64,000 bases of DNA from Zootoca vivipara (taxonomy: Eukaryota): positions 16,554,001 through 16,618,000 of the forward strand of contig NC_083281.1 of NCBI RefSeq assembly GCF_963506605.1. The letters are read 5' to 3'. Of the stretch, positions 1,107 to 63,800 are shown piece by piece. A program made the position numbers and the translations under genes. Every line of letters starts with the position of its first letter. Within the stretch, counting starts at the first letter, position 1. The notes beneath the pieces were generated by a model that saw only the letters and a program-made list of their open reading frames with translations, had not been told where the DNA came from and did no database searches.

Positions 1107-4100
1107 ATGGATCCCCTGGGAGCAGCAGCCCTTTTCCTGGTCATCTGCCTCTCTTGCCTGATGGTCCTCTCAACATGGCAGCAGATGCACCGCAAAAGCC
1201 AGATGCCACCTGGACCAACACCCCTCCCCTTCATTGGGAACCTGCTCCAAGTCAACACAAGTGATATGTACCGTTCACTCATAAAGGTAACTTTCTATAG
1301 TGTGTCAGTTATCCACTCTCTGATTTGTTATTATCAAATCGTTTTGTATACTGCTGCTTAATGAAGATAACTCATATCCACCCACCCACCCAACCTCTCT
1401 CTCTCTCTCTCTCTCTCTCCCCCCCCCACTTGACACAACATCTCCTCATAACTCTCCTTCCACCACATTCTCCAACTTTTGATCTCTCTGAGGTCTATGA
1501 GGTGTTGGGGAGAAGCAGTATACCTGGTGGGGGACACAGCATGTTCCTTTTGGGTTGTTAATTCCCTCTCCCCTCCATGGCTCCAAGAAGCTGTCAGCAT
1601 GCAACAGTGGCCAGACGCCAGGAAACAGCTGAAACTCACCGGCTGAAACAGGTGAAGGAATCCAGTGGGTTGCAAACCCTTAGTTAGTTAGGGAGGTGCC
1701 TAGTATGCGATGATCAGCTGCAGAAGACTGAGACCAAATGCAGGTCCAACAGTCAAGAAAGCAGTTTCTGCATGAAGAGAGAAATGGGGGACAGAAGGGG
1801 CTCATCAACCTGAGAAGGAAGAAAACCTAGGAGAACTCTTATCCTAAACCACCACTGCTTTGTGATTACACTCATTCATGGGAAAGGAGGAAACCCCGAG
1901 GGGAGGGGAAATCTGTACCCGCTGCCTTGTGAGATATCTTTGGGGGATAAAGATTAGACCATATGCAAATCCAGAGTGGAGTCCCTAAGGCGCTTGGATG
2001 ATGTCTTGCTCACCTCCTTCTGGCAACTCCTGCAGCCAAGCTGGTGCAAGTGTATTGCTTTGTTTCCCCTCGGGCCACATCACTGAGGCTGTGAATAGGA
2101 TCTTGTCCAGGAACCCCCTACACACTGCCCAGGCTTGCACCCCGGAAAGGTAACTTTGGTGCTGTAGATACAGATTTTCTCTCTTCATTATTCTGTTTCA
2201 TGGAATTTGGGAATGGAGGGAACTGCCGATAGCTGATAGCCGCAATGGATCTGCTTTGCCTCCACAGTTGGAGGCAGCAATGCCTCTGCATCCCAGTTTC
2301 TGGAAACCACATGAGGGCATCTGGCTGGTCACTCTAAGGACAGGATAATGGACTCTAGATGTGCTCCCTTTTAACCTGATCCAGCAGGCTCTCCTTGTGC
2401 TCTCTTTTCACAGATCCATGAAAAATATGGTCCTGTCTACACCATCCACTTAGGGCCTCGCCGTGTTGTGGTCTTGTGTGGATACGATGCTGTGAAGGAG
2501 GCCCTGGTGGACAAGGCTGAAGAGTTCAGCGGCCGTGGAGTGCATGCCACGTTTGACTGGCTTTTCCAGGGTTACGGTCAGTCTCTTCTTGGGCAGTCCT
2601 TGGCCAGAGCACATTATTACTGGCATTTATATGGCACCTTTTAGCAAGCATAGTACTGGAGTGTCTCAATGGTGGTTCTGTGCCATAGATTATTGTTATT
2701 TCCATTTTACTGAGGAGGTAAGTGAGCCTGGGAGTCTCTCTCCATATAAAAAAAACACCACACATATCTTAGGATGTTCTCCCAAAACCTGAATTCTGAA
2801 CTTTAAAACTGCACAAGATTTGAAAATGAAGACATTTTCATCATTATTATTTGTTGGAGGTGGGGGGGAATCTCCATCACTGTGTGTTTTCAGCCACATT
2901 CCCACTGAGTGCACATTCTCCTCCTCCTCCTCCTTCCCTTTACTCCTCCTTTGCTTTTTAGGGGTTTGCTTCTGTACCTGGGAACGGGCCAAACCGCTAC
3001 GCCGATTCTCCATCACGACGCTGAGGAATTTTGGGATGGGAAAGAGATCCGCCGAAGAGCGGATCCTGGAGGAGACCCACTTCCTGCTGGAATCCCTGAG
3101 GGCAACAAAAAGTGAGCTCAGTTTTGGTATCTTCAAGAAATGTGGCATAATGGCTTACAGATACTGTAATGGAAACTGTTGGCAGTTAGCTGAGAATTTA
3201 ATGCTGATAAACAGAATCTTTGGGTTTAATTTAGATGATGTTTCATGAGTTTTTACAATAAGAATTAATTGTTGTTTTTATGTGATACTCTTCTAATTAA
3301 TATTCTGCAAGCCACCTTGAGGGCTTTAGATGAACAGCGAGGGAGAAATCTGCAGATAAAAGAAAAAACCATTAAAGACTGGATTGATTTGCAAAGGCTT
3401 GCCTTGATTTGCTCCAGGGTTGAGTGACTTGGGGGTCTCTCTTTCTAGGTGAACCCTTTGACCCAACTTTTGTCCTGAGCCGCTCAGTGTCCAACATCAT
3501 CAGCTCCATCACCTTTGGCAACCGCTTTGAATACGAAGATCAGGAGTTTCTCTCCATGCTCCTCACTATGCTGGAAACCTTCCAGTTTACTTCCACCTCT
3601 TGGGGACAGGTAAATTGGAGGAGAAGTGGAGGACTTCCATCGTGAGTTTGTGAATAATGCAATTTCTCTTTATCTACTCAAGGCATGGTATGCAGGACAG
3701 CCACCACTGGGTGGGGCTCTCTCATTACCCCAAAGTCCAGCAATGGTCAAGACACAGGGTTAGAAGCTGCAGCATCACCAGCTAAGGAGCTAGATCACAT
3801 TCAGGGGTCTGAGTGAGCCTGACCAGAAAAGCTAATATTACAGTCTTCCATACCAGCAGAAACTACGCAGGTTCTCCACAAGTGGGCAGAACTTGGGAGA
3901 AGCTTAAAAATGGTTTTGATATCTGTTGGAGCAGGGGCGTACCCAGGATCAAAATTAGGAGGGCAAGGGGCGTGGCCAAGGCACAGGAGGGGAGGGGCCA
4001 CAGTGGGAATATGGGCGGGGCTACGTGGCCTGCGCCTTTCAGCTCTTCCAAGGAGGCGGCCCCAGGCTCCCGCTCCCGGCGCGAAGCTCCAAAAGCGCGC

Positions 4101-61598: not shown

Positions 61599-63800
61599 AT
61601 GGATCTCCTGACAGCAGCAGCCCTTTTCCTAGTCATCTGCCTCTCTTGCCTGATGGTCCTCTCAACATGGTGGCAGATGCACCGCAAAAGCCAGATGCCA
61701 CCTGGACCAACTCCCCTCCCCTTCATTGGGAACCTGCTCCAACTCAACACAAGTGATATCTACCGTTCACTCATGAAGGTAACTTTCTATAATGTGTCAG
61801 TTATCCACTCTCTGATTTGTTATTATCAAATCATTTTGTATAGTGCTGCTTAATGATGATCACTCCATTCAATCCGTCCACCCACCCTTCTGTCTCTGTC
61901 TCTGTCTCTGTCTCTCTCTCTCTCATTCCTCATAACTCTCCTTCCACCACATTCTCCAACTTTTGATTCTCTCTCTGAAGTCTATGAGGTGTTGGGGAGA
62001 AGCAGTATACTTGGTGGGGGACACAGTGTGTTCCTTTTGGGTTGTTAATTCCCTCTCCCCTCCATGGCTCCGAGAAGCTGTCAGCATGCAACAGTGGCCA
62101 GACCCCAGAAAACAGCTGAAACTCACTGGCTGAAATAGGTGAAGGTATCCGGTGGGTTGCAAACCCTCAGTTAGTTAGGGAGGTGCCTAGTATGTGATGA
62201 TGGGCTGCAGAATACTGAGACCAACAGTGGGTCCAACAGTCAAGAAAGCAATTTCTGCATGCAGAGAGAAATGGGGGCCAGAAGGGGCTCATCAACCTGA
62301 GAAGGAAGACAATCTAGGAGAACTCTGATCCTAAACCTCCACTGCTTTGCGGTTACACTCATTCATGGGAAAGGAATAAACTCTGAGGGGGGGGGGAATC
62401 TGTACCCGCTGCCTTGTGATATATGTTTGGGGGATAAAGAGTAGACCATATGCAAATCCAGAGTGGAGTCCCTAAGGCGCTTGGATGATGTCTTGCTCGC
62501 CTCCTTCTGGCAACTCCTGCAGCCAAGCTGGTGCAAGTGTATTGCTTTGTTTCCCCTCGGACCACATCACTGAGGCTGAGAATAGGGTCTTGTCCAGGAA
62601 CCCCCTACACACTGCCCAGGCTTGCACCCCGGAAAGGTAACTTTGGTGCTGTAGATACAGATTTTCTCTCTTCATTATTCTGTTTCATGGAATTTGGGAA
62701 TGGAGGGAAGTGCCGATAGCTGATAGCCACAATGGATCTGCTTTGCCTCCGCAGTTGGAGGCAGCAATGCCTCTGCATCCCAGTTTCTGGAAACCACATG
62801 AGGGAAGAGCGCTCTTGCGTTCGGGTCCTGCTTGAAGGTTTCCCAGAAGGGGCATCTGGTTGGTCACTCTCAGAGCAGGATACTGGACTCTAGATGTGCT
62901 CCCTTTTAACCTGATCCAGCAGGCTCTCCTTGTGCTCTCTTTTCACAGATCCGTGAGAAATATGGTCCTGTCTACACCATCCACTTAGGGCCCCGCCGTG
63001 TTGTGGTCTTGTGTGGATACGATGCCGTGAAGGAGGCCCTGGTGGACCAGGCTGAAGAGTTTGGTGGCCGTGGAGAGATATCCATAATTAATTGGCTTTT
63101 CCGGGGTTATGGTCAGTTTCTTCTTCAGCAATTCTTGGCCAGAGCACATTATTACTGGTACTGGCATTTATATGGCACCTTTTAGCAAACCTAGCTCTGG
63201 AGAGTCTCAATGGTGGTTCTGTGTTGTAGAGTATTGTTATACCCATTTTCCTGAGGAGGGAAATGAGCCTGAGAGTCTCTCTCTCTCTATTAAAAAACCA
63301 CATATATCTTAGGGCAGGCATCCCCAAACTGCGCCCCACGTATGCTTAAGATGGCCCTGCCTACAACTCCAATGATCCCTAGTTAACAGGACCAGTAGTC
63401 AGGGATGATGGGAACTGTAGACCAAAACATTTGCGCGGCCGAAGTTTGGGAATGCCTGTCTTAGGATGTTCTCCCAAAAGCTGAATTCTGAACTTTAAAA
63501 CTGGACAAGATTTGAAAATGAAGACGTTTTCATCATTATTATTTGTTGGAGGTGGGGGGGAATCTCCATCATTGTGTGTTTTCAGCCACATTCCCACTGA
63601 GTGCACATTCTCCTATTCCTCCTTCCCATTACTCCTCATTTGCTTCTCAGGGGTTTTCTTGAGTAATGGGGAAAGGGCCAAACAGCTACGCCATTTCTCC
63701 ATCATGACGCTGAGGAATTTTGGGGTGGGAAAGAGATCCTTCGAAGAGCGGATCCTGGAGGAGACCCACTTCCTGCTGGAATCCCTGAGGGCAACAAAAA
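61599..63800 (+). CDS. Cytochrome P450 family 2 (CYP2A/2G-like), copy E, exons 1-3 (continues beyond window)
   Basis: Exons 61599-61778, 62949-63111, 63651-63800 with canonical sizes and splice sites; intron 3 runs off the window. Confidence 0.92.
63315..63458. mobile_element. hAT-Charlie-type MITE in copy E intron 2
   Basis: TIR CAGGCATCCCCAAACT, TSD TCTTAGGG/TCTTAGGA; empty site in copies A-D. Confidence 0.88.

Follow-up and report, generated by a model that had tools for sequence, protein, structure and literature searches.

Old pocket segments and newer point changes probably combined on one scaffold in a tandem CYP2A cluster of the lizard Zootoca vivipara

A tandem cluster of cytochrome P450 genes of the CYP2A subfamily is found in a window of 64,000 nt of Zootoca vivipara NC_083281.1 (+ strand), to which all numbers and coordinates refer. 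The cluster, with copies labelled A-E, is probably a mosaic in which old pocket cassettes in substrate recognition sites (SRSs) 4 and 5, moved by gene conversion, are combined with newer point changes on one scaffold. The intact copies share a scaffold and differ most in pocket-forming segments. Two processes likely account for this: short gene-conversion tracts introduced old blocks of SRS4 and SRS5, taken from other paralog lineages within the cluster, and SRS1 and SRS2 acquired point substitutions, of which some were likely favoured by selection.

The copies were located by scanning the window with the nine exons of the first gene. All are on the + strand with GT-AG borders; four are complete (A-D), each with nine exons and an open frame of 494 residues, and one is partial (E). 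They match Zootoca vivipara RefSeq proteins named cytochrome P450 2A13-like or 2A3-like, given here by their stored numbers:

1107..8087, + strand: CYP2A copy A, 9 exons, 494 aa, 0 aa differences from P0143
12000..21824, + strand: CYP2A copy B, 9 exons, 494 aa, differing from A at 20 residues, identical to P0141
27820..32336, + strand: CYP2A copy C, 9 exons, 494 aa, identical to P0147
36797..49893, + strand: CYP2A copy D, 9 exons with an 8913-bp intron 7, 494 aa, identical to P0023
61599..63800, + strand: CYP2A copy E, exons 1-3, then the window edge, identical to P0145 over 164 aa

The five enzymes are 87-96% identical, pairs other than A and B differing at 45-63 residues, and coding DNA divergence among the copies is 3-8%. 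An assembly artefact, with A and B as two haplotypes, was considered; as 50 of the 1485 coding bases differ between them and their introns are of unequal length, the two are read as paralogs. The cluster is transcribed: 16 reads of RNA run X18 join exon 4 to exon 5 by splicing, and in RNA run X1 a contig spliced across exons 4-7 carries the F237 codon of E. Three raw RNA runs were checked, at a depth too low for ranking the copies.

The assignment to CYP2A, made in the first-pass annotation, is borne out by identity, domain content and tree placement. Window proteins are 64-66% identical to two primate CYP2A proteins and 55-57% identical to a frog 2G1-like protein; the subfamily threshold is over 55% identity to mammalian CYP2A, as closest relatives. 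PF00067 (Pfam p450) is detected on the stored RefSeq twin of A with E 1e-145, a Podarcis relative scores 776 bits against the PDB chain of 2A13, 748 against 2A6 and 592 against 2B4, and in the tree the lacertid genes sit among amniote CYP2A-like proteins as their own lacertid clade. The heme cysteine motif, ExxR, the I-helix threonine T305 and N297 are all intact in A-D. N297 and A124, an alanine replacing the C-helix tryptophan in A-E, serve as markers of the CYP2A subfamily, and the human chains are identical there. A-D also have nine exons and about 1500 bp of coding sequence, a structure given as a CYP2 family trait in the accessible part of PMC4860681. Because the Podarcis relative aligns gap-free to both the PDB 2A13 and 2A6 chains and the window proteins, human numbering applies and was taken via this protein, which bridges window proteins and solved structures.

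Paralog differences are concentrated in the pocket-forming segments beyond chance, as had been claimed. Among A-D, 84 of 494 positions vary. With SRS limits set as Gotoh's CYP2B limits plus three, 31/78 positions vary within SRSs versus 53/416 outside (odds ratio (OR) 4.5, circular-shift p 0.006); under the SRS boundaries of PMC8469730, 21/56 vary versus 63/438 (OR 3.6, p 0.018). In a set of 19 pocket residues ten are variable. In an outgroup control of 77 non-lacertid CYP2A proteins SRSs are not more variable than other positions (entropy 0.73 vs 0.70), and within strata of outgroup variability the enrichment has p<0.05 in five of six. All residue strings quoted earlier (103-108, 117-118, 292-301, 363-373 and 480) were found as stated, among them VHATFD (A, B), ELAVFN (C), EQALFN (D) and EISIIN (E) at 103-108 and CF (A), GF (B), FL (C), AF (D) and FL (E) at 117-118. 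Some listed pocket residues show little variation: 300 is F in A-D, 107 differs in E only and 480 in D only. The near-invariance of exons 1, 5 and 8 and much intron sequence had been overstated for exon 1 and the introns: 11 of 60 residues vary in exon 1, 5 of 59 in exon 5 and 4 of 47 in exon 8, and the mean difference in aligned non-coding DNA is 6-9%, similar to that of the coding sequence. Three segments are referred to below:

2540..2557, + strand: SRS1, codons 103-108 of A, counterparts at 13427 (B), 28385 (C), 37330 (D) and 63075 (E); residue 106 flagged by the codon model M2a, with and without the masking described below
2967..2996, + strand: codons 117-126 of A, with C117, W121 and P126; W121 and P126 common to B and to group I of the genus Podarcis
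3541..3594, + strand: SRS2 (F helix), codons 196-213 of A, 8 variable residues, fixed silent A/B vs C/D difference at 0/10 invariant codons

The copies have recombined with each other. The 126 informative sites among A-D fall into 27 runs (permutation p 5e-5), and non-coding divergence is heterogeneous in 6/6 copy pairs (p 0.007 or lower); the clustering of incongruent sites and the unevenness of divergence along each gene that mark clusters under gene conversion are both present. Exon 6 has 14 sites separating A/B from C/D in 142 bases, its flanks 2/144 and 1/135. At silent sites A/B have diverged from C/D two to three times as much within SRSs as outside, an excess that is clustered in two short tracts, codons 291-298 and 362-369: at codons invariant for the amino acid, a fixed silent difference between A/B and C/D occurs in 7/7 there (4/4 and 3/3, respectively) and in 7/368 elsewhere. 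Four of the five codons with three differences between A and C lie within the tracts (293, 296, 363, 368), and masking the 18 tract codons removes the silent-rate excess of the SRSs (scale 1.7-2.5 before, 0.8-1.3 after). In a codon model of the tracts the silent internal branch between A/B and C/D is about 1.1, versus about 0.03 outside SRSs, and the ratio of nonsynonymous to synonymous rates (dN/dS) is 0.47; for these reasons the differences in SRS4 and SRS5 resemble old blocks shifted by gene conversion and not the product of point-wise selection.

6632..6664 (A) and 20461-20493 (B), + strand: SRS4 (I helix) tract, codons 291-301, carrying A296 and G301; likely source the group II paralog lineage
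31312..31347, + strand: SRS5 tract, codons 362-373 of C; matches Podarcis group III
40488..40523, + strand: codons 362-373 of D; first half resembles C and group III, second half A/B; 3/5 diagnostic sites, p 0.04

Concerning the origin of the tracts, trees of 27 proteins and group tests were used, in which relatives are represented as proteins only and Ensembl-only P. muralis models were left out as possible cross-gene chimeras. Three Podarcis species share stable paralog groups, here labelled I-V, whose pocket motifs are kept across the three species. A-E bear group I scaffold markers, and A/B belong to group I along most of the protein (28-31 of the 34-35 sites scored). C matches group III at 6/6 diagnostic sites in SRS5 and at 4/35 outside (p 5e-5), and has the derived residues of group III at 4/4 positions in exon 7 and 0/26 elsewhere. 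A296 and G301 occur both in A/B and in Podarcis group II, the group to which the exon 6 tree joins A/B (UFBoot 93). G301 in A/B likely arrived with the tract; S369 is likely a single-base change specific to A/B. Some Ensembl-derived Podarcis muralis models (P0151, P0157 and P0158 among the stored proteins) change paralog group in mid-protein; they may be real hybrids or chimeras from annotation across genes.

Several points weigh against the mosaic. The tract limits were set post hoc with the data already in view, and the codon models rest on four complete sequences only. The link of A/B to group II is weak by site count (2/3, p 0.06-0.11), and the Zootoca group II protein carries A301. In the tree of the whole exon 7 the pairing of C and group III has no resolution (support at most 48), SRS and non-SRS trees give the same main groups, and no Zootoca group III gene is among the retrieved proteins. 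Donor DNA was not seen, and the C-type patch was not found in contigs of the other-organism runs X2, X4 and X7, where its absence is uninformative; the full-span contigs of these runs differed from C across the patch. In run X11 one contig equals C throughout 31300-31400 and another has five differences resembling D; neither was counted, as this run may be the source of the assembly itself.

The same silent-site clustering and runs test also fit with old paralogs homogenised nearly everywhere, in which the pocket segments are islands kept by purifying selection, as in primate CYP2D, and C and D are in-place descendants of group III. P. lilfordi accessions of groups I and III are consecutive, which suggests adjacency, and the lack of an intact Zootoca group III protein among those retrieved points the same way. 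However, C would have lost 26/26 group III derived residues outside exon 7, other SRSs included, with only one of six SRSs protected, and the group I identity of A/B along most of the protein speaks against islands as well; we regard this explanation as quite unlikely. The direction of transfer would rather be import of a patch than overwriting of all its surroundings.

Homogenisation is also indicated at the 3' end of the genes. From late intron 7 onward (49126-64000 vs 31552-34022) the grouping of A/B versus C/D is nearly lost, and at exons 8-9 all five Zootoca copies cluster together (bootstrap 84), which suggests species-wide homogenisation of this end.

Diversifying selection on the pocket, put forward in the first-pass annotation, finds partial support. 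Codon models (own implementation) were applied to the four complete, recombining sequences, with 461 codons for site models. M2a beats M1a with p 4e-5 and flags eight sites (106, 117, 293, 296, 329, 363, 368 and 470), four of them inside the tracts. Recombination inflates M2a. After masking of the 18 codons M2a is still preferred (p 0.0025) and flags 106, 117, 329 and 470, and the SRS enrichment persists (OR 3.3-3.7); 329 and 470 lie outside SRSs. The dN/dS of the SRSs is 1.05-1.5 after masking and never significantly above 1 (p 0.07-0.58), regional SRS estimates over all partition models range over 0.6-1.5 with none significant, and dN/dS outside SRSs is 0.3-0.4. Some point selection thus likely acted in SRS1 and SRS2, with 106 and 117 as its candidates. 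The cluster shows how recombination can mimic positive selection in site models, half of the flagged sites being gone after masking 18 codons.

One could extend point-by-point diversifying selection after recent duplications to all pocket differences, with convergence on the human 2A6/2A13 split. The preference for M2a before and after masking agrees with it, as do 16 nonsynonymous versus 3 synonymous SRS differences between C and D and the pair G301 and S369, found only in A/B among 89 CYP2A-like rows and in human 2A6 (PDB chain). Yet such selection leaves the seven silent differences of the tracts and the group III match of C unexplained, the SRS dN/dS and the inflation of M2a by recombination do not favour it, and two of the four sites flagged after masking are outside SRSs. 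Moreover, in parsimony on the 89 rows G301 changes 7 times and S369 5 times, each one base from the ancestral codon. We consider it unlikely that all pocket differences arose in this way.

An SRS dN/dS statistically compatible with 1 would also be expected under relaxed constraint in redundant copies with neutral conversion and no functional panel. Q94K (A) and G102R (D) alter residues invariant in the 77 outgroup proteins, and A-type reads are 0/20 at one diagnostic exon 4 site in run X18. Against this stand four open frames with intact heme motif, ExxR, I-helix threonine and N297, the low dN/dS outside SRSs and outgroup SRSs that are not more variable than other positions. Both old tracts coincide with SRSs, and the Podarcis groups keep their pocket motifs in three species. 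We regard this explanation as very improbable. Under the preferred mosaic, we infer that the patches were retained by selection and that substrate or regioselectivity varies from copy to copy, giving a substrate panel.

More tentatively, lacertid CYP2A clusters might preserve several old paralog lineages that act as a library of pocket modules, from which micro-conversion tracts of 25-30 bp carry single SRS cassettes onto a common scaffold and could give rise to new specificities at a single stroke. Natural chimeras would then be represented by A/B, C and D, and G301/S369 of A/B, the pair of human 2A6, would be one imported and one new residue.

Convergence with mammals, in particular the idea that A/B versus D repeats the human 2A6/2A13 split, is retained at residues 301 and 369 only. 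For the residue survey 98 of 138 stored proteins were kept by length and name, and the parsimony tree comprised 89 CYP2A-like rows after 14 rows had been dropped, Ensembl-only P. muralis models among them. A301 is present in 44/44 mammals, a sample biased to top-scoring 2A13-like proteins, and in 11/12 turtles and crocodilians; G301 occurs in 15/21 non-lacertid squamates and 7/20 lacertid rows, and S369 in 6/44 mammals and 0 lacertid relatives. G301 arose about seven times among the compared proteins. A301/G369 is the ancestral state of amniotes, so that D is ancestral at both sites and not convergent. Ten positions distinguishing 2A6 from 2A13 were compared, with the human residues read from PDB chains. 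A/B are like 2A6 at four and like 2A13 at four, M365 and L366 among the latter, and D is like 2A13 at five, like 2A6 at two and like neither at three; a 2A6 set in A/B and a 2A13 set in D were not observed. The human parallel is real at two small residues, from which a 2A6-like profile is not predicted. Either G301 or S369 would change the space next to the heme, as it does in human 2A6, but among different surrounding residues. A literature search for the 2A6 quadruple mutant and the mouse 2a4/2a5 switch residues gave nothing relevant.

W121, encoded within 2967-2996 (A) and 13852-13881 (B), is paired with P or H at 126 in 10/10 rows, with 7 parsimony changes on the 89 rows; these rows are lacertids, a gecko, lagomorphs, two rodents and a rhinoceros, and G121 occurs with Q126 in 70 rows. 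The pattern suggests a coupled substitution that has recurred where helix C begins, adjoining the position of the tryptophan missing in CYP2A. Nothing on a W121/P126 coupling was found among 10 of 26 matching papers.

Changes confined to one copy affect residues near-fixed in the 77 outgroup proteins, namely Q94K in A, G102R in D and R373C and R381W in C, and D has Y438S and H443P near the heme cysteine. Any of these six could reduce activity.

Mobile elements also lie in the window:

40745..49125, + strand, sense to D: L1-like element in intron 7 of D, with 18-bp target-site duplication and A-rich tail
52524-55529, minus strand: 1001-codon open frame between D and E, with endonuclease and reverse transcriptase domains; presumably CR1-like
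8723-9439 and 22518-23588, minus strand: long terminal repeat (LTR) retroelement remnant downstream of A and of B, with integrase zinc-binding domain
17476-18698, 24853-25887 and 56504-58654: related RTE-type long interspersed element fragments, 94-97% alike, one within intron 5 of B

The L1-like element contains two open frames, of 381 and 1307 codons measured from stop to stop, the long one with endonuclease and reverse transcriptase Pfam hits, as well as 59-bp tandem repeats near its 5' end and a polyadenylation signal. It is apparently full-length, looks young and could truncate D transcripts. The LTR remnant lies 3' of both A and B and was therefore duplicated along with the gene unit.

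In the literature we found no study of this cluster and no study of xenobiotic metabolism by reptile CYP2A, most subscription papers and supplements being outside our coverage; CYP2A/G is noted in reptiles in the available text of PMC4964396, while PMC3425548 contributed nothing specific. The cluster is a starting point for reptile xenobiotic metabolism, and its five enzymes with near-modular pocket differences are a natural series for testing specificity segments of CYP2A.

Compared with human 2A6/2A13, the lizard copies have colinear numbering of 494 residues, and 117, 301, 365, 366 and 369 vary in both sets. Unlike the human pair, F300 is found in all four complete copies, T208 in all lizard copies, and the 2A13 residues M365 and L366 in A/B; 300, 301 and 117 are named as main steric contributors in the human pair in the accessible part of PMC3666846. 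Divergence focused on SRSs is a long-known pattern in CYP2 clusters and hence unsurprising: the portion of PMC4419802 available to us credits Gotoh 1992 with positive selection on SRSs of CYP2A-2D paralogs, and SRS-focused change in other CYP2 clusters is described, as far as these texts were accessible, by Thomas 2007 (PMC1866355) and an avian survey (PMC4860681). Like those clusters, the present one comprises xenobiotic genes under birth-and-death evolution with changes on substrate-binding regions; it differs in being squamate CYP2A and in having about half of its M2a-flagged sites in recombined-looking tracts. Also close are primate CYP2D6/2D7/2D8, likewise tandem CYP2 paralogs with gene conversion and SRSs of separate history and higher dN, which according to the same part of PMC4419802 are homogenised by conversion except in SRSs (SRS dN/dS 0.79 vs 0.32). 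Whereas primate SRSs escape conversion, two SRS segments of the lizard appear to be converted tracts themselves, of about 25-30 bp, common to paralog lineages of another genus. The cluster is a new case of a known route of diversification for such clusters, and its likeness to human 2A6/2A13 is partial.

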